DNA of 64,000 bases from Candidatus Micrarchaeota archaeon (GTDB lineage: Archaea; Micrarchaeota; Micrarchaeia; Anstonellales; Anstonellaceae), in the NCBI GenBank assembly GCA_964392435.1, contig CAYMOY010000002.1, forward strand, positions 116,479 through 180,478, in the 5' to 3' direction. This document shows, in pieces, positions 7,537 to 41,569 of the stretch. Below the pieces are notes generated by a model. That model ran no database searches. It saw nothing but the letters and a program-made list of their open reading frames with translations, and was not told the origin of the DNA. Positions within the stretch are counted from its first letter, which is position 1. Each line of letters opens with the position of its first letter. The translations under genes were made by a program, and so were the position numbers.

Positions 7537-8319
7537 GTGGTGTTTACCTTGGCAGACCAAAATCAGGCAAACTTTCCAGACGGCAGGGCAAAGCCCCAAG
7601 CTGCGCTTTCCAGCGAGCCCAAAGTGGGCGGATTTAGGCTGCAGGCAAAGAGGCTGAAAAGCCCGTCTGAGATATCCCAAAGGCTCTCCGAGCTTTCCTT
7701 CCTGGAAATGAGCATGGACAAAGACGTGCTTACCGCGCTTAATGTCGAATCGCGGGACATCCAGAAGAACCCTTACTTGTTTTCCATAATATATTTCAGG
7801 CCGACCATGGTGGAGGCGCTTTACTCCTGCCTTCCGAACATGAGCCCGAAAAAGAGGAGGATAGACGTGCTGAAGCACTGCCTGAACCTGATGACATTGG
7901 CGGAAGACTGCTATGATGTTGAAACCCGCCAAATATACCAGCTGGTCGAGGCTTCGGTGGCGGACATGACAGAGTATGTTTCTGCCGATTATGACCGACT
8001 CTTTGCGCTTTATGACAACCTCAAGACGGACTTTGCTGCGTTGCAGAAGAAATACAACGAAGCAAAGGATGCCAGCGGCTCGCTTTCCAAGGAGAACTAC
8101 GACCTGAAAAGCAAAAACGACGAGCTTACGCTGAGGCTCAAGTCGCTTGAGACCTTCTCGGACACGGTGCTTGCGCTCAAGATACAGGAATGGCTTTCCG
8201 AGCACAAGGGGGAGATAAACATCTCTGACTTTGCCAAGGTTTACAACGTGCCCGAGATGCGGGTGGAGCAAATGCTCAACAAGCTGGTGACCGAGGGTTA
8301 CCTTGAGACCAAGGGCTAG
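7537..8319 (+). CDS. coiled-coil protein with C-terminal winged-helix-like domain
   Basis: GTG start 4 nt after upstream stop (first ATG at 7708). Heptad-rich middle (LKTDFAALQKKYNEAKDASGSLSKENYDLKSKNDELTLRLKSLE); C-terminal DFAKVYNVPEMRVEQMLNKLVTEGYLETKG resembles a wHTH. Confidence 0.4.
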   Translation: MVFTLADQNQANFPDGRAKPQAALSSEPKVGGFRLQAKRLKSPSEISQRLSELSFLEMSMDKDVLTALNVESRDIQKNPYLFSIIYFRPTMVEALYSCLPNMSPKKRRIDVLKHCLNLMTLAEDCYDVETRQIYQLVEASVADMTEYVSADYDRLFALYDNLKTDFAALQKKYNEAKDASGSLSKENYDLKSKNDELTLRLKSLETFSDTVLALKIQEWLSEHKGEINISDFAKVYNVPEMRVEQMLNKLVTEGYLETKG

Positions 8320-8339: not shown

Positions 8340-10982
8340 ATGAGCGAGGACCAACAGACTCTCAAGCTCAAGATTGCCAAGAAGGCATACATATTCGATG
8401 TGAGGAAAAGATTTGCCGCAAGCCGCACCTTTGCAGTCAAAAAAGCCCCTGAAACGCCAGCAGAGGACCTCAAGGAGAAGCTCAAGAGCCTGCTGGAGAA
8501 AAAAAAGACGCCTCTTGACAGCGCTGCGCCTGGTGGAAATGGCGCCTTGCCAGGGCAAAAGCCAGCCTTGGATGCCCCCCGAGGCGTTGGAGCCGGCCTG
8601 ATTAAGATTGCGGCGATAACAGCTGCTTTGGTGATTTTCGGTTTTCTTGGCCTTTTGGCAATGCTGCCCCCTGGCGGGGGAAGCGGGCCGTTGCAGATTG
8701 TGCCTGCAGACCTGTTCACAGGTAGCCTCTCCTTTTCTGTTGATGAGGGCATGGTGCTGACCGTGGAGGGGGAGGATTCTGCGCAGCACGCAGGTTATTT
8801 TCTGCTTTCCTACCAGGCAGCCAACCTTTCCGACCTGAATTTCACCGCCAAGCTCTACTCGCAGCAGCCTCCGACCCAAGTTTTCATATTGGACTATCCG
8901 AAAGACAGCGGAAGCTCCTACCCTGTTTTCAAAAAATACCTTGTTTCCAACCTGGCCCGGCTTGGGATACCGACCAATGAGATAGAGATAGGCATGGTGG
9001 GCCGCCTGCCCGCCGGGGCAGTGCTTTTGATTCCCACCGGCTATTTCCCGAAAGAGCTTCTCGGGGTGGACAATGAATTCGACTACCAGGACCTGCTTGG
9101 CCGCGGCGTGACGATAATCTACATAGGGCTGCCGTTTGACAACCAGGCTCTTGGCAGAGACGGTCTTGCAGTACAGGTCAGCCACAAAAAGATTGCCTTT
9201 GACAAAAAAGCCCGCCCAAAGTCAACTGACGGGTTCGGGCTTTTCAACGCGCAATATTCTGCCGCACCTGCCCAGACATACGCGGAAAACACCCTTTTTG
9301 CCTCTCCGCCCATCTACGGATCGATATCGGTGGTGAGGTACAAAACCGGCTCCATGCTAATCCTCCCCCAGAGCCTTGATGGCGGATGGCGCGAGAGGGA
9401 CGTTTCAGGCGCCTGGAGCGAAAAGGGCGGGATTGCCGCGCAAGACGTGGCGCGGCTGATAGCTGAGGAGCCCTGGATGCAGGAAATTTCCTCGGCCAGA
9501 TCCGCCGCCCTTCTTGGCAGCAATAAAGAAGGCAGACTCTCTTTGTTCACAGGCAAATTCAGCGCCGAATCGGCTTTTGTGAAGCTTGCAGCAGATGCTG
9601 CGGACCAGGACGGCTCTTTTCAGCGCAGCCTTGAAGTCTTTCGGATTGAGAAGTCCCAGAGCGGGAAGATGGTGCCTTCCGAGCCGCAGGCTGTCCCTTA
9701 TTACCTTTCAGGCCAGCGAACACGACTGAATGTGGCGCTTCGGGAGAACAGCTCCGCGCAGGTCAAGCTATATGTGGAAATGTACAAGGACGGGAGGCTG
9801 CTCCAGCGAACCGACCTTGAGCCGGGGCTCACAACACCGACAACGGACAAATCGGTGGACATACAGGTGAATGCCGAGCCTGGCAATTATGTGGTGGTGG
9901 TCGCGGACGAGCAGGGAAAAATCTATGCCGCCTGCGAGCTTTCGGTGACCGACCTTAACATCGCAGTCAACCAGAGCAATTGGAACAAGGGCAGGTTTTC
10001 CTTCCTCCTCTCATCAGCAAACCAGCCGGTGGAGCCGCGCAGCCTGTCCATTTCTTTCGACGGGAAGGAAGAGGCGCGATATTCCCCCTCCTCCCTGCGC
10101 CCAGGAGTCAGCGCAACTGAGGTGGAGTATGTTTACCCGGGAAAGATAGAATCCGGCCCCCATGTTTTCCTATTTACTGTTGGGACTTACCAAAAGAGCC
10201 TGAGCCTTTCCTATGACCGAATCCCGCCTTTTTGGGAGAACCCGGTTTTCATCGTGCTGACCCTCCTTGCGGCGGGGATTGGAGCAATGGGAATGGCATT
10301 GCGCAGGCCTGATTCTGTCAGATACGGCCTGGACATACCCGACTTCCCGCCAATGTCGACCATAAAAATACCTGTGAAGCGCGAAACGGTTATGGAAATA
10401 TTCTCCTCGGTGAACAGCGGCTACGCATGGCAGCGCATGCCTCTGAGGTTAGATGAGATAAAAAACGGATTCCGGAAGCTGACTTACAACGGCAAGCCGA
10501 TTCTGGTGGGGGATTTCAACCTCGAGCGGATACTTTCCAAGCTGGCTGATGAAGGGCTGGTGAAAGAGGAGCTGGGCTACTTTGGCCTGACTAGCTGGGA
10601 AAAGGAAAGCAACCACTCCATACGCTATCTTGCCATATACCGGATTATGCGCAACGTGTTTGTGAACAATGCTGTTAAGTTCTCCAAGCTTGACGCAATG
10701 CAGGACTGCGACATGAAGGCAATCGCTGGGAACGAGGAGATTTATTTGCACATAATGGAGGAGCCGGAGGAAACCGTGGTGCACCGGGCGCTTGCAACTG
10801 CGAAAAAAGGCACCACCCTGATAATATTCAAGACCTCCGAGGAGAGGGACGAATTCCGCTCCTCGCTCACCTCCACCTCCAAGCTGGCAGTCGGCCTCAA
10901 GATGGAGGTGGATGGCGGCAGGATAATGCTTTTCAACGCGAAAAACGACGTTCAAGCCTACCTGAAGGGAATCAACAGGTGA
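8340..10982 (+). CDS. large bitopic membrane protein (880 aa): Lys-rich cytoplasmic N-term, TM, ~540-aa extracytoplasmic region, second TM, ~230-aa C-terminal domain
   Basis: TM1 LIKIAAITAALVIFGFLGLLAMLPP, TM2 NPVFIVLTLLAAGIGAMGMAL. Last gene of the co-directional cluster. Confidence 0.5.
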   Translation: MSEDQQTLKLKIAKKAYIFDVRKRFAASRTFAVKKAPETPAEDLKEKLKSLLEKKKTPLDSAAPGGNGALPGQKPALDAPRGVGAGLIKIAAITAALVIFGFLGLLAMLPPGGGSGPLQIVPADLFTGSLSFSVDEGMVLTVEGEDSAQHAGYFLLSYQAANLSDLNFTAKLYSQQPPTQVFILDYPKDSGSSYPVFKKYLVSNLARLGIPTNEIEIGMVGRLPAGAVLLIPTGYFPKELLGVDNEFDYQDLLGRGVTIIYIGLPFDNQALGRDGLAVQVSHKKIAFDKKARPKSTDGFGLFNAQYSAAPAQTYAENTLFASPPIYGSISVVRYKTGSMLILPQSLDGGWRERDVSGAWSEKGGIAAQDVARLIAEEPWMQEISSARSAALLGSNKEGRLSLFTGKFSAESAFVKLAADAADQDGSFQRSLEVFRIEKSQSGKMVPSEPQAVPYYLSGQRTRLNVALRENSSAQVKLYVEMYKDGRLLQRTDLEPGLTTPTTDKSVDIQVNAEPGNYVVVVADEQGKIYAACELSVTDLNIAVNQSNWNKGRFSFLLSSANQPVEPRSLSISFDGKEEARYSPSSLRPGVSATEVEYVYPGKIESGPHVFLFTVGTYQKSLSLSYDRIPPFWENPVFIVLTLLAAGIGAMGMALRRPDSVRYGLDIPDFPPMSTIKIPVKRETVMEIFSSVNSGYAWQRMPLRLDEIKNGFRKLTYNGKPILVGDFNLERILSKLADEGLVKEELGYFGLTSWEKESNHSIRYLAIYRIMRNVFVNNAVKFSKLDAMQDCDMKAIAGNEEIYLHIMEEPEETVVHRALATAKKGTTLIIFKTSEERDEFRSSLTSTSKLAVGLKMEVDGGRIMLFNAKNDVQAYLKGINR

Positions 10983-13544: not shown

Positions 13545-14591
13545 TTAGCCAGTCGAGTAGTCGTCTTCCAGGTTGTCCAGGCTGATGGATTCCATTGACC
13601 TGTTTGCGGTCAGCTGCATGGAAATCTTTTTTTGCGAAATATTGAGCAGTATGCCTGCCCGCGCGCCGCCCTCGGGAATGTTGATTGCGAAGGTGCCCAG
13701 CCGGTATTCACCCTGCGCAAGATTCGCCCCGACCTCGATTGTTACGTTGGGGGCGGCTCCCCTAGGCGAGTTGGAATCTAAGTCGACTCGCACCACGTCG
13801 TGGGCGGGAAACCGCAGGTCCAAAAGAATTTGATTGAGCCTCAAGCCTGCCTCATTGCAAAGCCTTATGGCCTGCCATTTCTGCGCTTTAGAAGAAAGGC
13901 GCAAGACATCTTGCTCAAGACCGATGTTAAATGCTGCCTTTTTTGCATAATAGCCGCCTTCTGCCCTGCTGTAGTGCACCTGAATTGAGCCGATATGCGG
14001 ATTGCCCCCCCCACCCTCAGGAATAAAAGTTTCGGCTATGTGGAACGTGCCGACTATCTTGCCCCCCTCGTTTTCGCCATAGTAGACAATGGGCAGTATT
14101 TCCTTGTTCCCCTTGAAAGACTGTACCGCCAGAAGCGAGCCGAACGGAAGGAAATCCGCGCAGAAGCTGTTCATCGCCTCAATCTGAGCGGGCGAGAATC
14201 CGAACTTGATTGCGAAGGAGACCGGGGATATGTCAGACTCCTGCCTCATCGCCTCATCCACCATGACAAGCTCGGTTTTCTCAGCCATGGCTTTCAGCCT
14301 CTGTATCAGATGGTAAGGCTCGGAATCCGCCCGGTCTTCGATAAGCCTGAGAAGGGAGAGGGCCTCGCGCTCCAGCTTGAATGAATATGCAAGGGCATTG
14401 TCCATCTGTTCCTTGGAGGGCTTGCAAAGAAGGATTGATTTCCCGTCTGCAAGGGGCGTTTGGCGCAAAAATGAACCGAGCTGGGACCTGAGCCGCTGGG
14501 CTGCGCCAGGGGAAGTTTGGTCGCTGCTGGAAATCCTTGCGAAAATTTCGCGCGCTTGGCGCACGCATAATGAGCCGGAGCTGTTTGCCAT
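13545..14591 (-). CDS. hypothetical protein, divergent from AAA ATPase gene
   Basis: Long ORF; start taken at MANSSGS (14591). Shares an AT-rich divergent promoter region (14600-14700) with the AAA gene. Confidence 0.4.
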   Translation of the reverse strand: MANSSGSLCVRQAREIFARISSSDQTSPGAAQRLRSQLGSFLRQTPLADGKSILLCKPSKEQMDNALAYSFKLEREALSLLRLIEDRADSEPYHLIQRLKAMAEKTELVMVDEAMRQESDISPVSFAIKFGFSPAQIEAMNSFCADFLPFGSLLAVQSFKGNKEILPIVYYGENEGGKIVGTFHIAETFIPEGGGGNPHIGSIQVHYSRAEGGYYAKKAAFNIGLEQDVLRLSSKAQKWQAIRLCNEAGLRLNQILLDLRFPAHDVVRVDLDSNSPRGAAPNVTIEVGANLAQGEYRLGTFAINIPEGGARAGILLNISQKKISMQLTANRSMESISLDNLEDDYSTG

Positions 14592-14702: not shown

Positions 14703-17441
14703 ATGGCAAACGGGGGCAGCGGTGCGCGGGGCATGAGCAAGCAAAAAGTGCTTGCCACCATGCAGATGCTGCGCACGGACGAGAACCTCGGCGGGGCAAT
14801 CCTGGTGGCCCTGGGCACGCTTTTTCTCCTGCTCACCTTCACATTCTACCCGTTTTACCTGGTGCCGCTGCTTGCAGCCGCCGCAGGAACGCTTGCCTAC
14901 CGCAAGCCACCCCTTGGCACGATACTGGGAATGCTGCTCGCCTTTCCAGCTGTGGCGTACCAGGCGCCTGTGCTGGCCTGGATTTTCTGCGCCGCACTGG
15001 CCATCACGCTTTTCGAGGCGTTTGAGCATTGGAGCACCATCTCTTTTTTGCAGATTGCGATAATGGCGCCTTTTGCCCCCGCTCCATTCTCATATGTTTC
15101 AGGCTTCCTGTTCCTGCTTTTGGGGATTGCCGCGCTGCGCTTTGGCAGCAGACATTCCTTTGCAGTGTCGCTTCCCGCAGTATTCATCGTGCTTCTGCTT
15201 TCAACAATATGGCTGCACCCGACCGCCTCGTTCATCACAATATCCGAGGACTACCATTCCCTTTACAGCCCTGGCATGGAGCAGCTGATGAACAATGAAA
15301 AGCCGGAGGTGGGGGTTGAAGGAATTCTTCCAGCCGGCGCAGAGGCGGTTGCTTCCCTTTTCTCAGGAGAGAACATCCGCGTCTTTTCAGACGCGTTGGG
15401 GCTGATTGCCTCAAACACAGTAAAGCTTTTTGCCTCCGACTTTGCCCTGCCGCAGCTATTTGCCTGGGCTGCTGCTCTTTTCGCCTGCGCCATGCTGCCC
15501 CCGCTTATTGAGGACGGCGGGATTTTCATGTTCCTCAAGCCAGCCGTGCGCTCGCGATACAAGCAGAGCATAGCCTCGCTTGCGCTATTCATAATACCGC
15601 TCTCAAACTTCTTGCTCGCCCCCTCATTCAAGAATCCTGTGGAGCCCCTCTCGTTCGCATACTGCGCGGCAAGCGTGGGCGTCATCGCGGCAATGGAGCA
15701 CTACGGGATTTCGCTTTCGCGCGAAAGGATGGTCTCACGCCGCGAGAAGCAGAAAACTTTCGGGAAGTTCGGTGTGCAGGACCTCTCCGAGTCGGACGGC
15801 GTGGACTCGCTTGCCGATGTTGGCGGCTATGAGGATGTGAAACTCGAGCTTCGCGAGGCGATAATAGCCCCGATAAAGCAGAAGGAGCTGACCTACACAT
15901 ACGGGATAAAACCGCCCACGGGAATACTGTTTTTCGGCCCGCCAGGAACAGGAAAGACGCTTCTGATGAAGGCGCTTGCCAAGGAGCTGGACATCGGCTT
16001 TTACTACGTGAAATGCTCGGACCTGCTCTCAGAATGGTATGGCGAAAGCGAAAAGAACGTTTCCGAGGTGTTCACAGCCGCGCGCAAGAACGCGCCATGC
16101 GTGCTTTTCTTCGACGAGATAGACTCCATTGGCAAGAGGCGAGACTCCTACACCAGCGATGACGTGGCGCCCCGCGTGATGTCGGTGCTGCTGCAGGAGC
16201 TGGATGGGTTCAAGGGAAAGAAGAACGTGATAACGATAGGCGCGACCAATGTGCCTGACCAGCTGGACCCGGCGCTCATGCGCCCTGGCAGGTTTGACAA
16301 GGTAATTTACATGCCCCTGCCGGACATCGAGGCACGCAAAGCGATTTTCAAGGTGCATCTGAAGAAGCTGCCCTTGGAGCCAGACGTGGATTTCGAGCGG
16401 CTGGCGATTATGACCGAGCGGCACTCTGGCGCAGACATAAAGAACATCTGCACCGAAGGGAGCAGGCTGGCTGCGCGCGAAGCCATGAAGTCCGACGTGG
16501 TTGTCCCGGTTTCCATGAAACATTTGACCGCCACCATAAAAAAAGTCAAGCCCTCAGTCACGCTTGACATGGTAGAAACCTACAGCAAGTTCCGCATGGA
16601 CTACGAGCGCAGAAGCGAGGCTGTTGAGAAAAAGCCTGATGAGAAAGGGGTGCGCTGGGAGGATGTTGCTGGATTGGAGGAGGTCAGAAAAACGCTTCTT
16701 GAATCCATTGAGATGCCGCTTTTGCACGAGGACTTGATGAAGGAGATGGATGTCAAGCCCTCCAAAGGATTGCTGCTTTTCGGTCCGCCAGGATGCGGAA
16801 AGACGATGATAGTCAAGGCTGCTGCAAACGAGCTTAACGCGAACTTCCTGACAATATCCGGCTCAGAGCTGATGAGGGGCCGCGACCGGAACCCGGCGTC
16901 ATATGTCAAGGAAGTGTTCAACCGCGCCCGCGAGAGCGCCCCGGCTCTGGTTTTCATAGACGAGATAGAGGCGCTTGCGCCCAGCCGCGACGAGTACCGC
17001 GGAGGCATATTGACCGAGTTATTGCAGGAGCTGGACGGGGTGAAGGAGCTGAAGAATGTGATGATTGTAGGTGCGACCAACAAGCCTGCCGCGCTTGACG
17101 GCGCCATATTGCGCCCGGGCAGGTTTGACAAGATACTCTACATTCCCCCGCCAGACGCGCCTGCGCGCAAGCAGATATTCACAGGCAGCCTTGCCAAATT
17201 CCTGGAGAGGCTGAATTTGGACAAGCTTGCAAACGCCACGGACGGATTTTCAGGCGCAGATGTCGCCTCCATATGCCAGGAGGTGAAGATGCAGCTGGTG
17301 CGCGACCGGCTTTCAGGCAAGCCCACAGTGGCGACCACCGATTCTGTGATGAGGGTGATTTCCTCGCGCCGCCCCTCAGTCACCCAGAAGGACCTGAGGG
17401 AGTATTTTGCCTTCATGCAGGAGTATGGGGAGAGGAAATAA
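14703..17441 (+). CDS. membrane-anchored tandem-AAA ATPase (CDC48/VCP-like D1+D2 cassettes fused to ~350-aa polytopic N-terminal domain)
   Basis: N-terminal ~8 hydrophobic helices. Walker [16 protein letters not shown] and [15 protein letters not shown]; Walker B VLFFDEID / LVFIDEIE; SRH-like [20 protein letters not shown] and [20 protein letters not shown]. Confidence 0.75.
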
Positions 17442-17537: not shown

Positions 17538-18668
17538 CTATTTCCCAAATAGCCTGGAGCTGATGCCCTGCCCGCTGCCCAGGACCCTTTTCCTTGCCCC
17601 AAAAAACCATTCCTTTTCCTCTTGGAACGCCGCCCATTCCCCATCCAGCTCCTCCTGGGGGACAAAAAGCTCTTTTTCAGAAATTGCCGCAATCCTTCGC
17701 AGCTGCGTTTCTATTGGCTCGCCAAGCCCAAGAGAAAGGTAATGCCCGGCTGCTGATTTGAACTTCCCAAGAGCCGATTGCCGGCAGATTTCCTCGCACA
17801 TTTTTCCAGCGTCAAAGCCTTGTGCCCTCACCAGCGCGTGATTTCCGTTGACTAATTTCGGCAGGCGGCCGCAGAGGCGGAAATAGGCGTAGTTTTCCAC
17901 AATGGCAGAACGGATGTACAGTATGAAATTGTCCACCAGCTTCCCCTGCCCAGAAGGCAGGCTGTTGTGCTCTGCCTTTGGCAGCTCCCCATCTGGCGCA
18001 GAATTGCCCATGAAGCTGTATTGGGGAAACGAGTGCCTGGCGCAAAACTCGAAAAAATGGTCGTCAAACGGATAGAGTGTCGGGAAAAATCCGACCTGGC
18101 AGGAGAGGCGGGAGGAGACCCCGAAAAACCCGCCCCCAACACCGTGCGGTTTTGCCTGCCGCTTTGGCATGCGCACCACTCCGCGCAGCATCTGTTCAGC
18201 CTCTGCTTTCTGCTCCGGACTTGCAGACCACCCGGACAGAAGTTCAAGAAAATGCACCATGGCGTAGATTCCATTTCCTGTGCACCCCTGGTAAAAGCCC
18301 GGAACCAGATCGAATCTTGAAAGCGCTTGCAGGAAGATTTCGCCGCAGCCTTTTTGCGGAAAGATGTCATCGTCCAGGAAAATGATTTCGGACCTCCCGG
18401 CAGACAGCGATGCAAGCTGGAGCAGGTTTCTGGCGTGCCCTATGCTTTTGCTTCTCGCTCCAGCAGGCGACTGCAATATTTCATCCGCGTTTTCCTGGGA
18501 AAAAACCTTGGGGTCCTTTCCGCCGGCCCCGGGGATAATTTGCCTGACCTTATCCTCGTCCTTGGACTGGCAGATTGCGAAAAAATCTGATTGGCTGAAT
18601 GCTTCTGAAAGTTGGGGTATTGATTGCTGGAGAGCGTGCGGCCTCCAGCAAAGCAGGCAGGCGTGCAT
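17538..18668 (-). CDS. putative GT-A-fold glycosyltransferase-like protein (DXD motif)
   Basis: EIIFLDDDIFP motif; otherwise unassigned. Start uncertain. Confidence 0.3.
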   Translation of the reverse strand: MHACLLCWRPHALQQSIPQLSEAFSQSDFFAICQSKDEDKVRQIIPGAGGKDPKVFSQENADEILQSPAGARSKSIGHARNLLQLASLSAGRSEIIFLDDDIFPQKGCGEIFLQALSRFDLVPGFYQGCTGNGIYAMVHFLELLSGWSASPEQKAEAEQMLRGVVRMPKRQAKPHGVGGGFFGVSSRLSCQVGFFPTLYPFDDHFFEFCARHSFPQYSFMGNSAPDGELPKAEHNSLPSGQGKLVDNFILYIRSAIVENYAYFRLCGRLPKLVNGNHALVRAQGFDAGKMCEEICRQSALGKFKSAAGHYLSLGLGEPIETQLRRIAAISEKELFVPQEELDGEWAAFQEEKEWFFGARKRVLGSGQGISSRLFGK

Positions 18669-19074: not shown

Positions 19075-21831
19075 ATGAAAGGAATAAACGTGAAGAAGAT
19101 AGCGGCCTTCGCAGGCGCAGCTGTCCTCTTTGGCGCAAGCGTGGCAGTTGCCGACGTAGTGTATGGCAACATGCAGCTTGTTGACCAGAATGGGCAGCCG
19201 ACCGTGAAGGTTGTTGTCGGAAGCAAGGCAGCAATCACCGACGGTGTGGCAGCAGCCAACATCGCGGCGAAGATTGCCAACGAAGCCTACAAAAGCTCGA
19301 CTTTGACCGCCGGCCTCTCAGGTGAGGCGACGTGCAGTGTCGGCACCGGCACGAGCGGGGCAGGAAGCTGCTCGCTTGTCGAAAGCAGCAAGAAAGTGAC
19401 CCTTGAGGTTACCCTTCCAGGCACCATTGCCGGAACGCACACCTTCAAGACACTGATAACAGACACTATCGACAAGACGCTGGCAAACCGCAACAGCACA
19501 AGGGACGAGGACATGTTCGCAGCCCTGAAGAGCTCTTCAGACACTTCGACTGAGACCTCGCCGCTGAGGGCATACAGCGAGAACGGGACCATTGCCAAGA
19601 ACCTGTACAAGATTGGCTCTGGCCAGTTCACCGGATTCGCGGACTTCGCAATCACGGACACCAATTCCGCAGGAACCTCTTATACAGAGGAGCAGGCATT
19701 CTGGATAGGCAGCGGGAATGACGCTGTCAAGTATGACACCGACTCATCGATAAGGGATGTTGCGGTGAACACATACTCTGCAATGGTGTACAGCGCCAAG
19801 TTCGCAGGGAACGACTTCGGAATCCCGGTGTGCACAGGAGGGCTCAGCTCCAACACCACTGACGACTGGACCTCATGCGACTCCAACGGCAACGACATGA
19901 CCGAGAGGCACCGCGTGAAGATAAAGTTCATGGGCTCAGAATGGATAATCTCCGAAATGAAGGACCCGGCAGTTTCCAACCCAAGCCAGACCGCAGTTGT
20001 CAACGGCGGGCAGATAAAGCTGGCAAAGGAGGCCAAGTACGGAATCATCAACGTCGGAGGCGAGCTTGACGCAGGAACGTTCAAGGTCCGCCTGTCAGAC
20101 ATATCAGTCGCAGTCGGCTCTGCAAACGAGCACCCTGCGATAATTGATGTGCTTGACGCCGCAAGCGAGCAGGTCGTGGGGCAGATCCAGGTAACGCCCG
20201 GAACAACCTACACCTTCACGCAGTCTGGAACCAACAACTTGGTGAAGATACACGTGTACAAGACAGCGCCCGGGTTCACCCTGAATGCAAAGTGGGCCGA
20301 GATGGCAGTCTACACGGACGAGGTGACCCTCAAGGACACCAAGACGTACAACCTTGTTTCCTCATCGGACACCAACAAGAACTTCAAGGTGTCGCTTTTG
20401 TGGAAGAACAGGGACTTCCCAGGAGGGGTGCCAAGCGTTGCGGCAGCCAACAAGACCGACTCTCTGCGCCAGATAGTCATCTACGATGTGGACACATTCA
20501 CCGGCAACAAGTACAAGGCAGGGGACGTGTACAGCTTCCTGAAGAGTCCGTCGACCTTCAAGCTGACCTACAACGGAGTTGACCTGACTGACAGCGACTA
20601 CGAACCAGTATCCATCAGCGCGCTTTCGAAGATAAGCAACCTGAGGGTGGCTGTAGGCGCTGGCGGAGACACCGCATGCGCTGACACCAGCGCGGGCGAC
20701 TACTCCTACACCGGAAAGTTCATCCAGGTGAAATCGAACGGCAACCTGTTCGGAGGCTCTGGCCTGCTTGGCAGCTACATGGTCGACAAGTTCTACATCG
20801 ACCCGATTGGAGTGACTGGAGGCAACAGCACCACGCCTAACGGCACACAGGCATATGCGAATTCAACTGCGTATGTACTGTCGCCCAAGATATTCTTCCA
20901 GCCATCAGGACAGAACTGCTGGAAGTATGTCGCCATAACGCCACAGGCAATAACCGGCGTGACTGACTTGGCAAACGCTGTCAAGTTTGAAACGGCTGGA
21001 GACAACAGCGCTGCGTACGGGGCAATCTACCTGAACACCGCAAACGCACAGGCCGGCTTTGACGGGAACATTGTCATGCAGGAGGATGCGGGCAAGGTTG
21101 ACACAGCAAGCAACTACAAAGTTCTGCTTGCAGTGCCTTACAACCTGACTGCGACCGCCACAAGCGACGACCCCTTCAGGTTCAAGAGCTCGGACTCTGC
21201 GACCGCGAAGATCTGGTACAAGGGAATAAGAGATGCCAGCATGTCTGACAAGGAGCTGACCTTTGTGACAGAGCGCGGAACCAAGGCAACCAACCTCGGA
21301 ACCACCGATGCGACAGTAAAGGTGGCAAAGAAGGTTGGAATGCCTACCTTCCAGTTCGCATACTCTGACACCACCGTCTCAACCGGTGCTGACACGTATG
21401 AGCTGAAGGTTGGCGACAGCCAGGTGTTCGGCGGAGTGACTGTCAAGGTGAAGGCAATTGATGCAACCACTGGAAGCTGCTCGGTCCTCGGACCGGGAGG
21501 CGCCCCAGCCTGCACAGTTGACTCCAGCGCAGTAGGCGCGGTCATCAAGCCGGACAATGCCGCATCTGTGGAAGTGAGCCAGCCCGTCAAGCTGCAAAGC
21601 AAGCTTGTGGTCATGGACACTGCCGCATCAGGCATAGGCCCGGTGATCACAGTGGGAGGCCCACTGGTGAACACGGTGACTGCGGACGCGCTGAAGGACG
21701 CTGCTGTTGACTTCAACACCATGCCGGTGTACGTCAAGGAAATCGGCAACAAGATAGTGGTTGCCGGTAAGACCGCTGACGACACGATGGCTGCAGCAGA
21801 CGCCTTCATAAGGGACGTCAAGAGGCAGTAA
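19075..21831 (+). CDS. S-layer-like surface (glyco)protein, 918 aa
   Basis: Sec signal peptide MKGINVKKIAAFAGAAVLFGASVAVA; Thr/Ser/Asn/Gly-rich with many N-x-S/T sequons; GAGGTG before ATG; strong double-hairpin terminator after stop. Confidence 0.55.
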   Translation: MKGINVKKIAAFAGAAVLFGASVAVADVVYGNMQLVDQNGQPTVKVVVGSKAAITDGVAAANIAAKIANEAYKSSTLTAGLSGEATCSVGTGTSGAGSCSLVESSKKVTLEVTLPGTIAGTHTFKTLITDTIDKTLANRNSTRDEDMFAALKSSSDTSTETSPLRAYSENGTIAKNLYKIGSGQFTGFADFAITDTNSAGTSYTEEQAFWIGSGNDAVKYDTDSSIRDVAVNTYSAMVYSAKFAGNDFGIPVCTGGLSSNTTDDWTSCDSNGNDMTERHRVKIKFMGSEWIISEMKDPAVSNPSQTAVVNGGQIKLAKEAKYGIINVGGELDAGTFKVRLSDISVAVGSANEHPAIIDVLDAASEQVVGQIQVTPGTTYTFTQSGTNNLVKIHVYKTAPGFTLNAKWAEMAVYTDEVTLKDTKTYNLVSSSDTNKNFKVSLLWKNRDFPGGVPSVAAANKTDSLRQIVIYDVDTFTGNKYKAGDVYSFLKSPSTFKLTYNGVDLTDSDYEPVSISALSKISNLRVAVGAGGDTACADTSAGDYSYTGKFIQVKSNGNLFGGSGLLGSYMVDKFYIDPIGVTGGNSTTPNGTQAYANSTAYVLSPKIFFQPSGQNCWKYVAITPQAITGVTDLANAVKFETAGDNSAAYGAIYLNTANAQAGFDGNIVMQEDAGKVDTASNYKVLLAVPYNLTATATSDDPFRFKSSDSATAKIWYKGIRDASMSDKELTFVTERGTKATNLGTTDATVKVAKKVGMPTFQFAYSDTTVSTGADTYELKVGDSQVFGGVTVKVKAIDATTGSCSVLGPGGAPACTVDSSAVGAVIKPDNAASVEVSQPVKLQSKLVVMDTAASGIGPVITVGGPLVNTVTADALKDAAVDFNTMPVYVKEIGNKIVVAGKTADDTMAAADAFIRDVKRQ

Positions 21832-22182: not shown

Positions 22183-24285
22183 ATGAAAACGCCCTATCTT
22201 TTTGCCTGCCTTGCAGTGATGCTAAGCATTTCGTTTGCGGCATTCAGCCTTTCCCCCTACCTTTATTCCGGGGAAACCGAATCCATGCTCAATTACACCT
22301 CTTTCCCAACCTCAAACGGAACCGCGAAGCTGGTGAGGATAAGCGGGGCTGAGACCTTCCTTCTCCTGGACGAGAAGATGCTGACGGACACGGCGCAAAT
22401 CAAGGGGATACTGGGCGAATACTATTCCAAGAACTTTTACCCCTCGCAAGAGGAGCTTGCCGAAGTGCAAAACTACGCGCTTTTATTCAACAAAAGCCGC
22501 AATTACCAGACTCGTTTTGGGCCTGCTGAGAAGACCTGCATGACAGGGGGAACCTTCCTTTCTTACAAGCCCTGCAACGACATGGCGACTTGCTTGCAGA
22601 CAGCTTCGCTGGTCTGCTCAATAACAGGCTCGGAGGGGTGCATAGTCGATTTGCTCGCCACGCACATCCTTGCATACAAAAAAGCGGTGGACAAGCTTGT
22701 CTTGGCTGACGCAAAGTTCACAGCCGCGTATGCCGGAGCCGGGCCTTCGAACATAGCAAGCTCGCTTGCCCAGATGGAGGAGGCATTCGCGCTTATGAAA
22801 AGCGGGGCGGACGATGTTTCCCAAAGCAAGCTGCGCTTCCCGGATGGGGGCTACACCGCCTGCAGGGACTGCCTTGGCATCTGCCCGGACTCGCACTTCG
22901 ACTATAGCGCGATAACCTCAGGGCAGAAGCTGGTGGCGCAGCTTAAGGAGAAAAGCGCCTATTTCGCGATGCTAGATGTTACTGTGGACAGGATTTCAGT
23001 TTCAACGCAGGAGAGGCAGAAATACCGCTCTGGCGAGGAAACGCTGGTGATTTACAAGCCAAAGTTCGAGTCTGCCAAGGCTTCTTTTGCCGGGATGGAG
23101 GCGCAGGCGGTCGAGGCAAAAGCCCTGGTTTCAGACAGCGACTTTGTCTCTGCGGCAAACTCGTTTTTGGGCAGGCAGGATGAGCTTTCGCAGAAACTGG
23201 AAAAGCGGGATTTTTCAGGCTTTGACGCCCTGCTTTCCAGCTACATATCATCGGGCAAGGCGCTTGCCATGATGGTCAACAATTCCACTGTTGCATATCA
23301 GGAGGCGCTTGGTTCGCAGGACGATTCCGGCGATTACATAATAAAGGCCCAGTGGAGGGTGAACCGGCTCTCCAAGGCTTCTGTGGATTCCTACAACTCG
23401 CTGGCAGAAAGAAAAAACCGGCTGGACGCGCAGTTCAAGCCCCCAATGACCTCAGCCCAGTACCTTGCACTTGCCTCAAGCTTCGACAATCTGACCATCG
23501 ATGCCAAGACGTATGTTGCCGCCTCCACCTCATTCCAGGACTCGATTTTCGGGATGGGCAACAGCCTGGGACGGGCGAGCGTGGATGGGGCGATGGGCAT
23601 TGCGGCAAGCATGGCGCCAGTATCTTTCAAGACACGCCAAAGCGTGGCAAAATACGTGCCGATGCTGGTTGTCGGGACCATTGACCTGGCAATGCTTGCA
23701 TTGGGGATAATGCTTTTCGTTGGCGCGTTCTATTATTTCCACGGATTTTTCAAAAGCAAGCTGGCGATATCAGGCTGGGCGCTGACGCTGCTTGGCTTTG
23801 TCTTTGTGCTCCTGGTGGGCTCGGTCGGGGTGTACAGCATAATAGCCAACAGCGACCGGTTCGTGTCCTTCACCGAATTCATGGACACCATCAAGGCTTC
23901 GGACAGCGCAGTTGTGATTGTGGAGGAGACCGGCTTGCCCGAGTCCACAGTCAAGGCGATGCGTGATTGCGCAGGGCAGATTGAGATGCAGCTGAGGCTG
24001 ATGGGCAAGACCACCAGCAAATACTACATAGGCGGCAGCCTGTGCAGCTCCGTCATACCCAGGCAGTCCAATGGCACGAATTACACGTATGAGGTGAAAA
24101 ACGGGCGCGCCGCGCAGGAATGCCTGGACTCGATACCAGATACCCCGGTTTTCGACCTGCAATACTCGAATGAGAACCAGCCGCCCTCATTCACAACCGT
24201 GGTCACGAAATCGGCCATAATAAAGGGCAACGAAGGCTACTATGGCAAGATGCCAATGTGCGACCCGGCAAACGTTCTTGGCTGA
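22183..24285 (+). CDS. secreted/membrane-anchored protein (700 aa) with signal peptide and C-proximal TM helices
   Basis: MKTPYLFACLAVMLSISFAAFS signal; hydrophobic VPMLVVGTIDLAMLALGIMLFVGAFYYF and ALTLLGFVFVLLVGSVGVY near residue 480-550. Confidence 0.45.
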   Translation: MKTPYLFACLAVMLSISFAAFSLSPYLYSGETESMLNYTSFPTSNGTAKLVRISGAETFLLLDEKMLTDTAQIKGILGEYYSKNFYPSQEELAEVQNYALLFNKSRNYQTRFGPAEKTCMTGGTFLSYKPCNDMATCLQTASLVCSITGSEGCIVDLLATHILAYKKAVDKLVLADAKFTAAYAGAGPSNIASSLAQMEEAFALMKSGADDVSQSKLRFPDGGYTACRDCLGICPDSHFDYSAITSGQKLVAQLKEKSAYFAMLDVTVDRISVSTQERQKYRSGEETLVIYKPKFESAKASFAGMEAQAVEAKALVSDSDFVSAANSFLGRQDELSQKLEKRDFSGFDALLSSYISSGKALAMMVNNSTVAYQEALGSQDDSGDYIIKAQWRVNRLSKASVDSYNSLAERKNRLDAQFKPPMTSAQYLALASSFDNLTIDAKTYVAASTSFQDSIFGMGNSLGRASVDGAMGIAASMAPVSFKTRQSVAKYVPMLVVGTIDLAMLALGIMLFVGAFYYFHGFFKSKLAISGWALTLLGFVFVLLVGSVGVYSIIANSDRFVSFTEFMDTIKASDSAVVIVEETGLPESTVKAMRDCAGQIEMQLRLMGKTTSKYYIGGSLCSSVIPRQSNGTNYTYEVKNGRAAQECLDSIPDTPVFDLQYSNENQPPSFTTVVTKSAIIKGNEGYYGKMPMCDPANVLG

Positions 24286-25933: not shown

Positions 25934-27751
25934 TTGGGAGATTGGATGAGGAGAGCAACCTACTCTTTTGCATTCCTAGCCCTGCTGCTGCTTTTTTCCA
26001 GCCTTGCAGCCGCCTCGTGCCCAACTGCGAAGAGGCAGATATACCTTGCTGCAGTCACTGGAGAGTCCTCAGGTGGGATTTTCCAGCTCCAGGTGGAGCT
26101 GCGGCCAGGCAACGGGACAGTATATACCGCCATAACGCCCCGCACCGGCTTTTCCACCCAGGAGTCCGAGATGGATGCGGTAAATTACGCATTTGCTTCC
26201 GCAGGGGCGGACCTTGGCGGCTGCGATGTTATGTTCAGCATGAGAGGCGATTTTGGGGACAACACCGTGGACGGGCCTTCTGCCGGAGGGGCGATGGCAA
26301 TTGCCACCAAAGCTGCCCTCCTGAATCTGGCGATAAGGCAGGACGCGGCGATGACAGGCACTGTTTCCAAGGACGGGAAGGTGGGCGAAGTCGGGGGAAT
26401 AATAGAAAAGGCAATCGCGGCCGCAGACTCAGGCACAAGATATTTCGTGGTGCCCAAGCTGAAAGTGTATGAGGCGCTGCTGATTTCATCGGTTTCCCGC
26501 AAATACGATTTTGCCGCGATAGAGGCGGCCAGCCTGCAGGATGCTGAAAAAGTCATGTTCTCCAATTACACGGAAAAATTCAGCTCAAATTTCTCCCCGG
26601 AAAGCAAGCCCATTCCCCTTCAGCTTCCGAAGCTTTCCGTGGATGCCCAAACAGGCAGGTTCACATTGGTTGCAAAAAAAGTGGTGGACAGCCTGGATGC
26701 GACTGTCAGCGCGGTCTTTTTTGGGCAGAATGAGAATGAGGCGGGCAGGCAATTGCACAAATACTTCGCCGATGAGCTTTCCAAATACCGGACACTTTTG
26801 GCCATGGGCTATCCTTTCACTGCGGCAAACTCCGCGTTCCTGCTTTCGATAGATGCCCAATACGCGAAGATAGGCGACAGGCAGGTGGACATAAACGGCA
26901 GCTTTTCAGATGTTCAGGATTGCGTTATGGGGCTGGAAAAGCCTGAAAAGACCATGGAGAATTTCCAATGGGCGATTGGGAGCGACCTTCGCAGGACTTG
27001 GGCGGCAAAAAAACTGAACGAGACTGAGGATGGACGAAGCGAGCACGGGGGGTATGTGACCTTGCGCGATTTGCTTTTTGCCAACAGCTGGTGCGGGATT
27101 TCCAGCGAGCTGTCATTGCAGGCAGATGATGTGGGGGGGCAAAAGGTGGATGAGGGCGCGCTTGCCAGCCTTGCATCTCAGAAGCTTTCTGAGGCTGAAT
27201 CTGTGCTGGTTTCAGCCGCCAAGCCCGACTATGATGCTCTTTGGCATTACGAGAACGGCCTTGAGGCAAACCAAAGCGGGGAATACGGGGCTGCGATATA
27301 CGAGGCCACCTACGCTGCCACCATGCAAAGGATAACCTCGGATGAGAAGGTGAACGCCAGCATGGCCGCCCAGAATCTTATGGGAAGGGGGGGAAACTCC
27401 CTTTGGGGCAAGATATATTACGCGCAGGGAGTCTACCTGTACCATGATGCGCTTGAGAACGGGGCTTTGCCCAATGATGCTTACAGGATACTCAAATACT
27501 CGTCCGAGCTTGATGCCGCCTCTGCAGAGATTGACAGAGCACTTGAGCTTTCGCTGCAGAATGGTTCTGCCAAAGCAGATGGGGAGGGGCAGTTAAAGAC
27601 CGATGGCCAAAAAAAGCCAAAGCCAGCAAGTGAGGAAAACCCGGCACTTTTGCTCCTCATCGCACTGTGCCTTGGCCTGACCGGGGCTGCCGCAGTGTGG
27701 AGGCTTGCGAAAAAGGGAAGCAAGATAAGCATTGGGAAACCGAAGTGGTGA
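25934..27751 (+). CDS. extracytoplasmic S16 (Lon-like) peptidase-domain protein with signal peptide and C-terminal TM anchor
   Basis: DGPSAGGAMAIATKAAL...TGTVSKDGKVGEVGGIIEKAIAAADSG (Lon proteolytic Ser-Lys dyad region); N-term FAFLALLLLFSSLAAAS; C-term PALLLLIALCLGLTGAAAVW. Confidence 0.55.
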   Translation: MGDWMRRATYSFAFLALLLLFSSLAAASCPTAKRQIYLAAVTGESSGGIFQLQVELRPGNGTVYTAITPRTGFSTQESEMDAVNYAFASAGADLGGCDVMFSMRGDFGDNTVDGPSAGGAMAIATKAALLNLAIRQDAAMTGTVSKDGKVGEVGGIIEKAIAAADSGTRYFVVPKLKVYEALLISSVSRKYDFAAIEAASLQDAEKVMFSNYTEKFSSNFSPESKPIPLQLPKLSVDAQTGRFTLVAKKVVDSLDATVSAVFFGQNENEAGRQLHKYFADELSKYRTLLAMGYPFTAANSAFLLSIDAQYAKIGDRQVDINGSFSDVQDCVMGLEKPEKTMENFQWAIGSDLRRTWAAKKLNETEDGRSEHGGYVTLRDLLFANSWCGISSELSLQADDVGGQKVDEGALASLASQKLSEAESVLVSAAKPDYDALWHYENGLEANQSGEYGAAIYEATYAATMQRITSDEKVNASMAAQNLMGRGGNSLWGKIYYAQGVYLYHDALENGALPNDAYRILKYSSELDAASAEIDRALELSLQNGSAKADGEGQLKTDGQKKPKPASEENPALLLLIALCLGLTGAAAVWRLAKKGSKISIGKPKW

Positions 27752-38509: not shown

Positions 38510-38600
38510 GCTTTGCCACCATTTGGCTGCCAGCAGGCATTCCCCCTGCTTTAAAAGGATTGCAGCAGATTCCTAATTGGAAAAAATCCGGGGGATTTTA

Positions 38601-39344
38601 ATGGCTATTGATTTTCATATTACCGCAAAGCCCAAGCTCAAAAAGCCAGTCCTGGTGGAAGGCTTTCCCGGCCTTGGCCTGGTGGGCACTATTTCGGCAA
38701 GCTACCTTGTTGAAAAGCTGAAGATGGAGCCGCTGGGCTACATTACAGGTGACCAGTTCCCACCGCTTGCCGCGGTGCACAACAGGCGCCCGCTTTATCC
38801 TGCGCGCATGTATTACTCCATCCGCCACGACCTGATAGTTTTCATATCTGAATTCGTGATTCCGATAGCTGCGGTGAACGAGCTTGCGGACAAAATCCAC
38901 GATTTTGCGAAAAAGAACCGGGTGAGCAGGATAATCTCCTTGGGCGGAATCACGATAAAAGGCGAGCAGGACGAGGTTTTTGCAATCGCATCCCTTCCGG
39001 AGCTTATCCCTGCGCTTGAGAGGCTGCCTAGCGTAAAGATGATAAAGGAGGGCGCCACCACGGGAGTTACCGGGGTGCTTCTGGCAAGGGGCGCGGTGGA
39101 GAACTATCCGGTGATTTCCCTTCTTGCAGAGTCGCAGGAAGGCTACATGGACCCAAAAGCGGCTGCCATGGTCTTAGAAGTGCTAAAGGCGATGCTCAAG
39201 TTCGACATTGACACCAAGACGCTGGAAAACGAGGCGAAGGCGATTGACACCAAGGTGAAAGATGTCATGAGCAAGGCAAAAACAGCGCACAGCGATTACA
39301 AAAAGGTGCAGGACGGCGCAAGCCTCGGCCCCATGTACGGCTAG
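38601..39344 (+). CDS. PAC2-family proteasome-assembly chaperone (PbaA/PbaB-like)
   Basis: MAIDFHITAKPKLKKPVLVEGFPGLGLVGTISASYLV matches the PAC2 N-terminal signature. Confidence 0.6.
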   Translation: MAIDFHITAKPKLKKPVLVEGFPGLGLVGTISASYLVEKLKMEPLGYITGDQFPPLAAVHNRRPLYPARMYYSIRHDLIVFISEFVIPIAAVNELADKIHDFAKKNRVSRIISLGGITIKGEQDEVFAIASLPELIPALERLPSVKMIKEGATTGVTGVLLARGAVENYPVISLLAESQEGYMDPKAAAMVLEVLKAMLKFDIDTKTLENEAKAIDTKVKDVMSKAKTAHSDYKKVQDGASLGPMYG

Positions 39345-39416: not shown

Positions 39417-40031
39417 TTGATGGAAGAATACAGGCTGCCTGATTTGCCTTATGCATACGACGCGCTGGAGCCCTATATTGACGAGGCCACCATGAGGCTG
39501 CACCACGACAAGCACCACAAGACATATGTGGACAAGTTCAACGCCGCCCTTGCAACAGTGCCGGAGTTCCGCGCAAAGGTGGCAAGCGCCGAAGATGCGC
39601 TGCGCGACCTTTCCGCCGTGCCTGAAAGCATCAGGGGCGCGGTGCGAAATCATGGGGGAGGGGCAGTGAACCATTCGTTTTTCTGGAGCGGCATGACAAG
39701 CGAAAGGCAGTCTCCAAGCGGAAAGCTTGCCGAGGCGCTTTCCAGGAAATTCGGAAGCGTAGACAAGTTCGAGGAGGCGTTCTCCGCTGCCGCGGCAGGC
39801 GTGTTCGGCAGCGGCTGGTGCTGGCTTGTCCTGAACGGAAGAGAGATGGAAATAATGACCACTCAAAACCAGGACAGCCCGCTCTCTGTTGGCAAGATGC
39901 CGCTCCTCACCTTGGATGTTTGGGAACACGCATATTATAAAAAATATGGCCCAGCCAGGGTTGAATACATCAAGAACTGGTGGAATATAGTAAATTGGCA
40001 GAAAGTCGAGGAGAATTATAAGCTACGCTAA
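39417..40031 (+). CDS. sod: Fe/Mn superoxide dismutase
   Basis: LPDLPYAYDALEPYIDEATMRLHHDKHHKTYV ... DVWEHAYY. Confidence 0.85.
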   Translation: MMEEYRLPDLPYAYDALEPYIDEATMRLHHDKHHKTYVDKFNAALATVPEFRAKVASAEDALRDLSAVPESIRGAVRNHGGGAVNHSFFWSGMTSERQSPSGKLAEALSRKFGSVDKFEEAFSAAAAGVFGSGWCWLVLNGREMEIMTTQNQDSPLSVGKMPLLTLDVWEHAYYKKYGPARVEYIKNWWNIVNWQKVEENYKLR

Positions 40032-40847
40032 AGAAGTAGCCGCATTCAAACTAAGCCAGTTTTTCAGATATATAATTTTTTCCTCTTTTAATTTCGTAGT
40101 GCTGATATTTTCAAAGAATCTTTTTATGCATTCTTTTTTATAGACCCTCAGATGGTAAGCTCTTTTTCGATTATCGTCTTTTGGTTCCTGAATGGAATAA
40201 GCTGATATTATGCTCGCTTCATTCAGTATTTTTCTTATGGATTCTAGAAAACCATAGTTCGTATTGGTGATGTCTAGGCATATCTTCGGAGTCCTTCTTA
40301 CTTTCTCTTTTATGATTTTGACACAGCCTTCTGCATCAAAAAAACCTTCAACGAACAACAATTTTGAACGCATGTCTGTTTGTGCCAATAAATTTTCCAA
40401 ATAAACAGAATTCTCTCGCGCCTTTTTGAAAAATGAGTAAAGTTCAAAATTGTTTGACCTAACAAACCACACATTTTTACTTCGAATGATGTATGGTTTA
40501 TCTACTTTGGAAATGCATGAAGCCAGCATCTTAGAATATTTTTTTGTGAATATTCTGTCCCCCACAAGAATAACGTAATTCCTAGTTATTTTCCAATTAT
40601 AGATGCAGCCGTCGCCTAGTAAAGCGCCAAGCACATAGAAAAGCTCTGGTTTTATCATGATTTTTCCTTTGCGCCCGTTGGGTAGGTAATCTCCCTTATA
40701 CCAACAATAAATAGTCCCTCTCGGCAAGGAAAATTTATTATGGACGATATTAACGATATCTCTTCGGGGGACGTTTTCTGCTTTGAGCTTTTCGAAAAGA
40801 GCAAATGCCCGAAGCCTAACTGTGTGATTTGTCCGTATGCCCACCAT
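40023..40847 (-). CDS. LAGLIDADG homing endonuclease (double-motif), AT-rich foreign gene
   Basis: LGALLGDGCIY (motif 1) and FVEGFFDAEGCV (motif 2). Local GC visibly ~35% vs ~58% surroundings. In frame with, and 15 nt downstream of, the truncated integrase ORF. Confidence 0.75.
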   Translation of the reverse strand: MVGIRTNHTVRLRAFALFEKLKAENVPRRDIVNIVHNKFSLPRGTIYCWYKGDYLPNGRKGKIMIKPELFYVLGALLGDGCIYNWKITRNYVILVGDRIFTKKYSKMLASCISKVDKPYIIRSKNVWFVRSNNFELYSFFKKARENSVYLENLLAQTDMRSKLLFVEGFFDAEGCVKIIKEKVRRTPKICLDITNTNYGFLESIRKILNEASIISAYSIQEPKDDNRKRAYHLRVYKKECIKRFFENISTTKLKEEKIIYLKNWLSLNAATSLA

Positions 40848-40862
40848 GTAGATAACTGAATT

Positions 40863-41444: not shown

Positions 41445-41547
41445 CTGTGAGCCCCCTGTCCTGCTCTAAGTAGTATTTATATTTAGGCGAGACACACAAC
41501 GGAGGCAGACTCAGGTGTATGTCTAAGGCTAGCAGTAAGACTAGTGC

Positions 41548-41569
41548 ATCATACAAGGTGCAGGGGGAG
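41548..41569 (+). repeat. att-core-like direct repeat of tRNA-Leu 3' end (atcatacaaggtgcagggggag)
   Basis: 20/22 identity to 54084..54105 (atcatgcaagatgcagggggag), which spans the tRNA-Leu 3' terminal 11 nt plus 11 nt of 3' flank. Followed leftward by ~100 bp homologous to the integrase upstream arm. Confidence 0.6.

Follow-up and report, generated by a model that had tools for sequence, protein, structure and literature searches.

The question raised by this locus is what a Cdc48-type tandem AAA ATPase would do when its N-terminus is a large membrane domain. The gene was found in a 64,000-nucleotide stretch of DNA from a Candidatus Micrarchaeota archaeon (contig CAYMOY010000002.1 of assembly GCA_964392435.1), here called the window, and its product of 912 aa begins with ~335 aa of all-helical membrane domain, which a basic linker connects to two complete AAA cassettes of the classical type, designated D1 and D2. 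The removal of proteins from archaeal membranes is poorly understood and, to our knowledge, archaea generally lack FtsH. With a likelihood that we put somewhat short of even, our analysis suggests that the protein may be a membrane-integral, presumably hexameric double-ring AAA unfoldase, which would extract or disassemble membrane or envelope proteins. The invariant catalytic motifs, the match of the cassettes to the D2 type, the conservation of the N-terminal domain (N-domain) and the flanking envelope genes all appear consistent with this reading. An earlier, sequence-only reading of this DNA had already described two complete AAA cassettes behind a polytopic membrane domain, and Pfam, sequence motifs, Kyte-Doolittle hydropathy, AlphaFold2 (AF2) and 104 full-length homologs agreed on this layout.

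Such a fusion could have arisen from an annotation artefact, the hydrophobic N-terminus being either a mis-called extension of the open reading frame (ORF) or the result of two fused genes. In the ORF list, ATG 14703 yields the 912-aa protein and a TTG at 14658 is an alternative upstream start, which might lengthen the ORF at its 5' end. The TATA box AAATATATAA, the TATA-like element that the sequence-only reading had assigned to the gene itself, was localised 3' of this TTG and 22 nt 5' of ATG 14703, and an 'atatataa'-type box with the same distance to the start codon was present in more than 20 orthologous loci, including most of the closer ones. This spacing implies that the mRNA of the AAA gene would be leaderless or carry a very short leader, beginning at ATG 14703. 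The divergent gene (13545..14591) had its own TATA at 14614-32, 22 nt from its ATG at 14591; a scan for bacterial sigma-70 promoters and terminators was set aside, since it is uninformative for archaeal DNA.

The homologs pointed in the same direction. A search with the AAA half of the protein gave at least 120 clusters with 55-93% identity, nearly all of them of 890-960 aa, and in the 104 full-length homologs the Walker A motifs fell at ~395-450 and 680-730, the first being preceded by 5-10 hydrophobic peaks. The N-terminal regions of all 104 aligned to residues ~9-370 of the query (30-88% identity), so that the fusion is far beyond chance. When the N-domain was used as a phmmer query against 1.84 billion representatives, 40 proteins were found, mostly of 880-930 aa, the remaining matches being fragments or longer forms that probably contain inteins; this exhaustive search thus indicated that the N-domain occurs essentially only in this AAA fusion. 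A word-indexed search with the N-domain alone returned only 6 matches and underestimates the family. In a close relative (P0001, contig ENA ERZ1426835) the gene was called as two overlapping ORFs, of 604 aa (membrane domain and D1) and 304 aa (D2), which stems from a frameshift or from misassembly, unless the two rings are truly encoded apart; this call might speak for an artefact, but the split point lies between D1 and D2 and not behind the membrane domain. The conservation of the N-domain in the homologs and of the spacing between TATA and ATG together indicate that the hydrophobic N-terminus is a genuine part of the protein and not an ORF extension, and both contradict a true start downstream of the hydrophobic part, which had been named as what would overturn the fusion. 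We therefore regard the artefact as effectively refuted, its probability being close to nil.

To follow the family across genomes, GTDB contigs of one genome per species were scanned with the single protein as query, yielding 47 loci in as many Micrarchaeota species genomes, with identities of 35-80%; one of these loci sits on a complete chromosome of 1.57 Mb. The sources of the homologs and all 47 loci belonged to the Micrarchaeota (Micrarchaeia, with Anstonellales/Anstonellaceae, Burarchaeum and Bilamarchaeaceae), and the family is restricted to this phylum and kept throughout it. The annotations in the source databases were generic ('VCP-like ATPase', 'AAA family ATPase', 'SpoVK/Ycf46/Vps4 family'), labels that hide the membrane domain. 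No description of the family was found in full-text literature searches, whose coverage did not extend to the paper on the membrane-bound AAA protein MBA itself, in line with the earlier statement that the family is uncharacterised; the fusion of this membrane domain to a tandem AAA is unstudied so far.

Pfam recognised two AAA domains (PF00004, at residues 408-539 and ~690-820), two AAA_lid_3 domains and one tail helix of the Vps4_C type, and found no CDC48_N or CDC48_2 domain in the 912-aa protein. The absence of the Cdc48 N-domain, as the sequence-only reading had it, was thus borne out, also by the all-helical model of residues 1-340. The same holds for the Walker A and B motifs and the arginines of the second region of homology in both cassettes: Walker A was GPPGTGKT at 412-419 and GPPGCGKT at 694-701, Walker B was FFDE, its last residue being 472, and FIDE, its last residue being 754, and the Arg fingers were RPGR at 527-530 and 804-807, and GPPG(T/C)GKT, the D-E of Walker B and RPGR were invariant in both cassettes among 117 family members. 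The GAD sensor-2 motifs (G576-A577-D578 and G851-A852-D853) were invariant in both cassettes in a full-length alignment of 53 sequences, and the sensor-1 Asn (N793) was conserved in D2. In pore loop 1 of D1 the Trp, Tyr and Gly were found in 107, 104 and 116 of the 117 sequences, respectively. The terminal helix (895-908) had Y901 in 104 and Y908 in 105 of the 117, and the protein stops four residues past it with a nearly invariant ...EYGERK. In Kienle et al. (PMC5070193), a tail helix that bears a tyrosine at its centre is given as a trait of the Cdc48 family.

The D1 pore loop is also a site of insertion. Some orthologs carried an intein of ~500 aa, which starts with Ser and ends with ...AHN followed by Ser; in two of them (P0050 and P0065) it gave LAGLIDADG and Intein_splicing matches in Pfam, and at two loci (L031:8238-9752 and L035:8125-9567) it interrupted the very motif of the D1 pore loop, with WYGE before it and SEKN after it. 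Inteins typically insert at critical sites of important proteins, and we counted the presence of an intein in this loop in some lineages as pointing to the importance of the gene, as we did the occurrence of the gene in 47 species genomes.

The two cassettes were then assigned by their scores. D1 scored 247.9 bits against D2 of p97 and 180.6 against D1 of p97, D2 scored 206.3 bits against D2 of VAT and 171.4 against D1 of VAT, and both mapped onto the D2 part of TIGR01243, which suggests that both cassettes are of the Cdc48/VAT D2 type. D1 and D2 of the protein were 39% identical to each other and each had a similar closing helix. The CDC48, PAN, FtsH and CdvC models of NCBIfam ranked top, all of them under their curated cut-offs: 515.5 bits against a cut-off of 802.65 for TIGR01243 (CDC48), 421 against 600 for TIGR01241 (FtsH) and 477.5, as the sum across the two cassettes, against 500 for PAN. 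Of the earlier description as a CDC48-like tandem, the Cdc48-type nature of the cassettes stood, but by its scores the first cassette is of the D2 and not the D1 type and the protein remained below the TIGR01243 cut-off.

These assignments bear on a rival explanation, in which the protein would simply be the Cdc48/VAT of the Micrarchaeota, a general segregase residing on the membrane that acts on soluble and membrane substrates and feeds the proteasome by way of an adaptor, with a membrane domain that only localises or regulates it. The tandem AAA is of the Cdc48 family by its motifs (the GAD sensor-2 and the tail helix with Tyr), and two surveys state that there is generally one Cdc48-type protein per prokaryote (PMC5070193) and report Cdc48 for all archaea surveyed (PMC3493965). 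Neither the window nor the flanks examined in Micrarchaeota, ~0.75 Mb of DNA, showed a second AAA gene, an absence that is not significant, as ~1.5 such genes would be expected in ~0.75 Mb. A proteasome is probably present: the gene at 38577-39344 (+) encodes a PAC2-family (PbaA/PbaB-like) protein ending in ...LGPMYG, a hydrophobic-Tyr-X (HbYX) motif, which implies that the organism has a 20S proteasome and, for it, an activator or chaperone independent of ATP; we count this also in favour of the extraction reading. Against a general segregase, the D2-like first cassette points to a history of duplication of its own, an HbYX tail that could dock to the 20S particle was not found in the protein or in the family ending of the 117-sequence alignment, and the conservation of the membrane domain goes beyond the needs of an anchor. 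Taking both sides together, we consider this explanation rather unlikely.

Kyte-Doolittle hydropathy gave 8-9 peaks in residues 26-331, and AF2 modelled the N-domain from a 43-sequence alignment as all-helical with good confidence (predicted local distance difference test score, pLDDT, 90.2; predicted template modelling score, pTM, 0.85), with an amphipathic helix at the N-terminus (11-25), nine hydrophobic helices within residues 27-333, an acidic loop of 77 residues (171-247) and a closing basic helix (341-354). G72, Q87, P123, F124, G148, S149, W170 and W255 were invariant in the N-domain alignment, W255 being only nearly invariant in the 53-sequence full-length alignment. No match for the N-domain was obtained with Pfam at E<=10, none for the membrane domain with Foldseek against the PDB (best E 0.44, TM score below 0.2), and hhalign of the N-domain profile against the S-component CbiM gave a probability of 0.3%. 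The N-terminal multi-pass domain is therefore one with neither a Pfam match nor a whole-domain match among solved structures. In the loop after helix 248-270, an insertion of ~13 residues (270-285, window 15510-15557) was shared by the query and the three relatives that are closest to it in the alignment, and no other family member had it.

The searches also speak to a second rival explanation, according to which the domain would be a ligand-binding or transport module related to the S-components of energy-coupling factor (ECF) transporters, and the AAA rings would power or regulate transport or signalling. The Foldseek, Pfam and CbiM profile results just given weigh against it, genes for ECF T and A components (CbiMNQO) were nearby only at locus L003, and the pore loop of D1 has the canonical form of loops that thread proteins. 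We know of no AAA-driven small-molecule transporter, and we hold this explanation to be very unlikely.

For the topology we used secondary structure and charge statistics only. The counts of Lys plus Arg alternated cleanly between successive loops of the membrane domain throughout the family, with high means in the N-tail (5.4), L2 (0.85), L6 (1.84), L8 (2.25) and the C-terminal linker (6.8) and low means in L1 (0.09), L3 (0.0), L5 (0.03) and L9 (0.2). This pattern fits ten predicted membrane segments with both the N- and the C-terminus inside, provided that residues 89-124 form a hairpin turning at ~104-110, a position where one family member has an insertion. With nine spans, an odd number, the N-tail and the ATPase could not both be cytoplasmic. 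The membrane domain with many helices suggested by the sequence-only reading was thus upheld, whereas the number of segments differed between the AF2 model and the charge pattern. In the 10-segment model the conserved FYP, FPAxAYQSP and APF motifs, W170, W255 and the acidic loop would face the outer side.

According to the mechanism that we favour, the multi-pass N-domain would embed the machine in the cytoplasmic membrane and the linker of ~37 residues would keep the D1 ring at the inner membrane surface, with its entry face against it; we place the D1 entrance at the membrane because the membrane domain is N-terminal and the linker is basic and short, leaving the N-terminal face of D1 close to that surface. 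The D1 pore loop W445-Y446-G447 would grip membrane or envelope proteins by their cytoplasmic tails or loops, and ATP hydrolysis in D1 and D2 would draw the substrate from the bilayer and thread it to the cytosol, through D1 first and then through D2, after which it could be disassembled, recycled or handed off to a protease. The formation of a hexameric ring, the direction of threading, the class of substrate and the fate of the product, including any link to degradation, we infer. The membrane domain could serve as substrate receptor, as an aid for exit from the lipid, or as both; as it is as conserved as an enzyme core, it is probably more than an anchor, recognising substrates or easing their exit.

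Envelope genes lie downstream. In 25 of the 42 loci with enough downstream sequence, the AAA gene was directly followed by the gene of an S-layer protein, together with that of a 700-aa membrane protein, even where the AAA protein was only 47-56% identical, and with differing upstream contexts (GT4-GH57, the genes for proteins of 260 and 880 aa described below, or neither). This linkage between the AAA and S-layer genes is suggestive only. The sequence-only reading had looked to the divergent gene 13545..14591 as a possible conserved neighbour; it was detected in just 3 of 55 loci, at 24-28% identity, and was rejected as a partner, the S-layer gene being the persistent neighbour instead.

On the basis of this linkage the protein could instead be a dedicated S-layer or envelope factor, which would have a part in remodelling, recycling or assembling the S-layer protein and the membrane protein that goes with it, with extracytoplasmic loops touching the envelope. 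Besides the survival of the linkage in changed upstream contexts and at low AAA identity, the gene next to that of the S-layer protein encodes a 700-aa protein with two transmembrane helices, a membrane protein of 880 aa with a large ectodomain is encoded upstream in the closer clade, and the conserved aromatic motifs and the acidic loop would point outward in the 10-segment topology. Nevertheless, each gene has a promoter of its own, and in the window they are kept apart by an opposite-strand gene (17538..18668); the linkage was absent in 17 of the 42 loci, including those of Anstonella stagnisolia, Burarchaeum, Bilamarchaeaceae and the deepest clade; and housekeeping genes (a tRNA synthetase and ArgG) were found within the same conserved block, so that the linkage may be inherited gene order only. 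A dedicated factor of this kind seems to us improbable.

The last two of these observations also weigh against the extraction of membrane or envelope proteins as the function, together with several properties of the protein itself. The D2 pore loop had no aromatic residue here (MRGRDRNPA) and was variable among the 117 sequences, so that threading through the full double ring is not assured. There is neither a fused protease nor a C-terminal HbYX. The nine helices of AF2 stand against the ten segments that the charge pattern needs, and AF2 modelled residues 89-124 as one unbroken helix. Finally, the full-length AF2 model (pLDDT 82.6, pTM 0.54), in which the domains were confident and their relative placement was not, is that of a monomer and is silent on ring formation.

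A bolder form of the extraction reading, which we regard as speculative and improbable, can be outlined. Six multi-pass domains, amounting to ~54-60 helices, would form a receptor or conduit in the membrane, coupled directly to the double-ring unfoldase, making it an archaeal 'dislocon' built of a single type of polypeptide, functionally analogous to the eukaryotic retrotranslocation by Hrd1/Derlin and Cdc48 and independently invented in genome-reduced symbiotic archaea, where it would possibly be the sole Cdc48-type ATPase and would possibly serve the turnover of the S-layer and envelope in contact with the host. The coordinates of the gene, its elements and the envelope genes are given in Table 1.

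Table 1. Coordinates, in the window, of the tandem AAA gene, its promoter, predicted domains and motifs, and of the downstream envelope genes (res, residues; K+R, Lys plus Arg).
Feature	Position	Strand	Basis or remark
AAA ATPase coding sequence (912 aa + stop)	14703..17441	+	ORF list, Pfam, NCBIfam, at least 120 homolog clusters of 890-960 aa
TATA box AAATATATAA	14671..14680	+	Ends ~22 nt 5' of ATG 14703; read from sequence
N-terminal basic amphipathic helix (res 11-25), predicted cytoplasmic	14733..14777	+	AF2 helix; N-tail mean of 5.4 K+R family-wide
Polytopic membrane domain (res 27-333), family-specific, no Pfam match	14781..15701	+	AF2: nine hydrophobic helices; charge parity: ten segments
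Long acidic loop with helical hairpin (res 171-247), which the 10-segment model predicts to be extracytoplasmic	15213..15443	+	AF2 helices 205-220 and 222-245; family mean net charge -3.1
Linker (res 334-370): basic helix ~341-356, then acidic flexible stretch	15702..15812	+	Full-length AF2 pLDDT 57-66; mean of 6.8 K+R
AAA cassette D1 (res 371-640)	15813..16622	+	Pfam, family alignments, p97 D1/D2 scores
D1 Walker A	15936-15959	+	
D1 pore loop 1 (W445-Y446-G447)	16035-16043	+	
D1 Walker B	16101-16118	+	
D1 Arg fingers	16281-16292	+	
D1 GAD sensor-2	16428-16436	+	
AAA cassette D2 (res 641-912)	16623..17438	+	Pfam, family alignments, full-length model
D2 Walker A	16782-16805	+	
D2 pore loop (MRGRDRNPA)	16872-16898	+	
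D2 Walker B	16947-16964	+	
D2 Arg fingers	17112-17123	+	
D2 GAD	17253-17261	+	
D2 tail helix	17385-17426	+	
S-layer protein gene (signal peptide, S_layer_C, no C-terminal anchor)	19075..21831	+	Pfam; most persistent neighbour; context, not proven part
700-aa envelope protein gene (signal peptide, large ectodomain, two transmembrane helices near res 495-555)	22183..24285	+	Accompanies S-layer gene; context only

Several other genes of the window were recorded. The 700-aa protein may be the membrane anchor of the S-layer, the pair being conserved downstream in many Micrarchaeota. The opposite-strand gene between the AAA and S-layer genes is an ORF of 376 aa that matched nothing in Pfam or NCBIfam and has an FLDDDIF motif, a DxD-like motif of the glycosyltransferase kind; a 38%-identical copy occupied the same interval on the other strand at locus L014, and most loci lacked it. 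Upstream of the AAA gene, 7537-8319 (+) encodes the 260-aa protein, with weak winged-helix matches (EAP30/Vps36-like here, CdvB_HTH-like at locus L008), and 8340-10982 (+) the 880-aa protein, with two transmembrane helices around a large ectodomain and no Pfam match; in the closer clade this gene pair is a conserved feature upstream of the AAA gene.

The gene at 25934-27751 (+) encodes a protein of 605 aa having a Lon_C (S16) domain without ATPase, an N-terminal signal peptide and a C-terminal transmembrane anchor, and several relatives have it in this syntenic block as well. It has the appearance of a Lon-like protease tethered to the membrane outside the cytoplasm, and this location, indicated by the signal peptide and the anchor, led us to reject it as the partner protease of the AAA protein. 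Farther downstream, an island of low GC content (40001-42000; 0.43 against ~0.54 elsewhere) contained a free-standing LAGLIDADG endonuclease ORF (40023-40847, -); no rRNA or other Rfam family was detected in the island, so that this ORF is not an rRNA-intron endonuclease. At 52748-54179 a tyrosine-recombinase gene of the phage integrase family adjoins a tRNA-Leu(TAA), the usual signature of an integrated mobile element.

The family represents a machine conserved throughout a phylum, in which a Cdc48-type double motor and a large, previously undescribed membrane domain are on one polypeptide. It would be a new architecture among AAA unfoldases, the anchors of the relatives compared below having one or two helices, and it offers a natural experiment on what takes the place of the Cdc48 N-domain. 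If extraction holds, it would provide a compact model of ATP-driven extraction of membrane proteins. For DPANN symbionts, it is a concrete candidate for a factor that maintains the envelope.

Compared with known systems, the protein resembles Cdc48/VAT/p97 in its two tandem classical AAA cassettes with lids, the GAD sensor-2 in both and the C-terminal tail helix with conserved Tyr, and its top sequence matches in the PDB were p97 and VAT. It differs from them in having the polytopic membrane domain instead of a double-psi-barrel (plus beta-clam) N-domain, a D2-like first cassette, and the aromatic pore loop in D1 and not in D2; unlike archaeal Cdc48 members, it lacks HbYX and scores under the TIGR01243 cut-off. 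PAN, with an N-terminal coiled coil and oligonucleotide-binding (OB) domain, a single cassette and an HbYX end, differs in all three respects, since here the N-terminus is a membrane domain, there are two cassettes and HbYX is missing. From the ECF S-components (ThiT, RibU, BioY, CbiM and PanT) the membrane domain is set apart by the lack of sequence similarity and of a Foldseek match, by twice their size, by its fusion to an unfoldase and by the lack of ECF T and A partners.

Among archaeal membrane-bound AAA proteins, MBA reportedly (Serek-Heuberger et al. 2009) has two transmembrane helices around an extracellular domain and a single AAA cassette, and is said to be confined to the Sulfolobales. 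The present family is likewise archaeal, membrane-bound, of the classical AAA type and functionally uncharacterised; unlike MBA as so described, it is Micrarchaeota-only and has a different, much larger membrane domain. The membrane-bound AAA group of classification surveys, to which the sequence-only reading had alluded, is the MBA of Sulfolobus, named as such in PMC3493965; by the description just given, it would not be the present family. The Spaf-like proteins of plants, as described in PMC5070193, are Cdc48-family members of eudicots that lost the N-domain and gained a single C-terminal transmembrane anchor; they share with our protein the double-ring Cdc48-family ATPase without N-domain and with a membrane anchor, which here is N-terminal, multi-pass and archaeal.

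The most similar geometry would be that of FtsH and Msp1. The present protein shares with FtsH an N-terminal membrane anchor before a classical AAA ring, and it is proposed here to have the entry face on the membrane side. In both FtsH and Msp1 the entry face of the AAA ring is at the membrane. FtsH, for which the extraction of membrane proteins from the bilayer is established, has two N-terminal transmembrane helices, one AAA cassette and a C-terminal M41 zinc protease, whereas the present protein has 9-10 helices and two cassettes and gave no peptidase M41 match in Pfam. Msp1 is eukaryotic and has one transmembrane helix and one meiotic-clade AAA cassette, unlike the multi-pass domain and two cassettes of this archaeal protein, with which it shares, as does ATAD1, a membrane-tethered AAA ring without protease. 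According to PMC7018516, such a tethered, protease-less ring of Msp1/ATAD1 extracts membrane proteins via aromatic pore loops. The Micrarchaeota protein thus combines an FtsH/Msp1-like geometry with a Cdc48/VAT-like motor, yet by their defining features it is a member of none of these groups.

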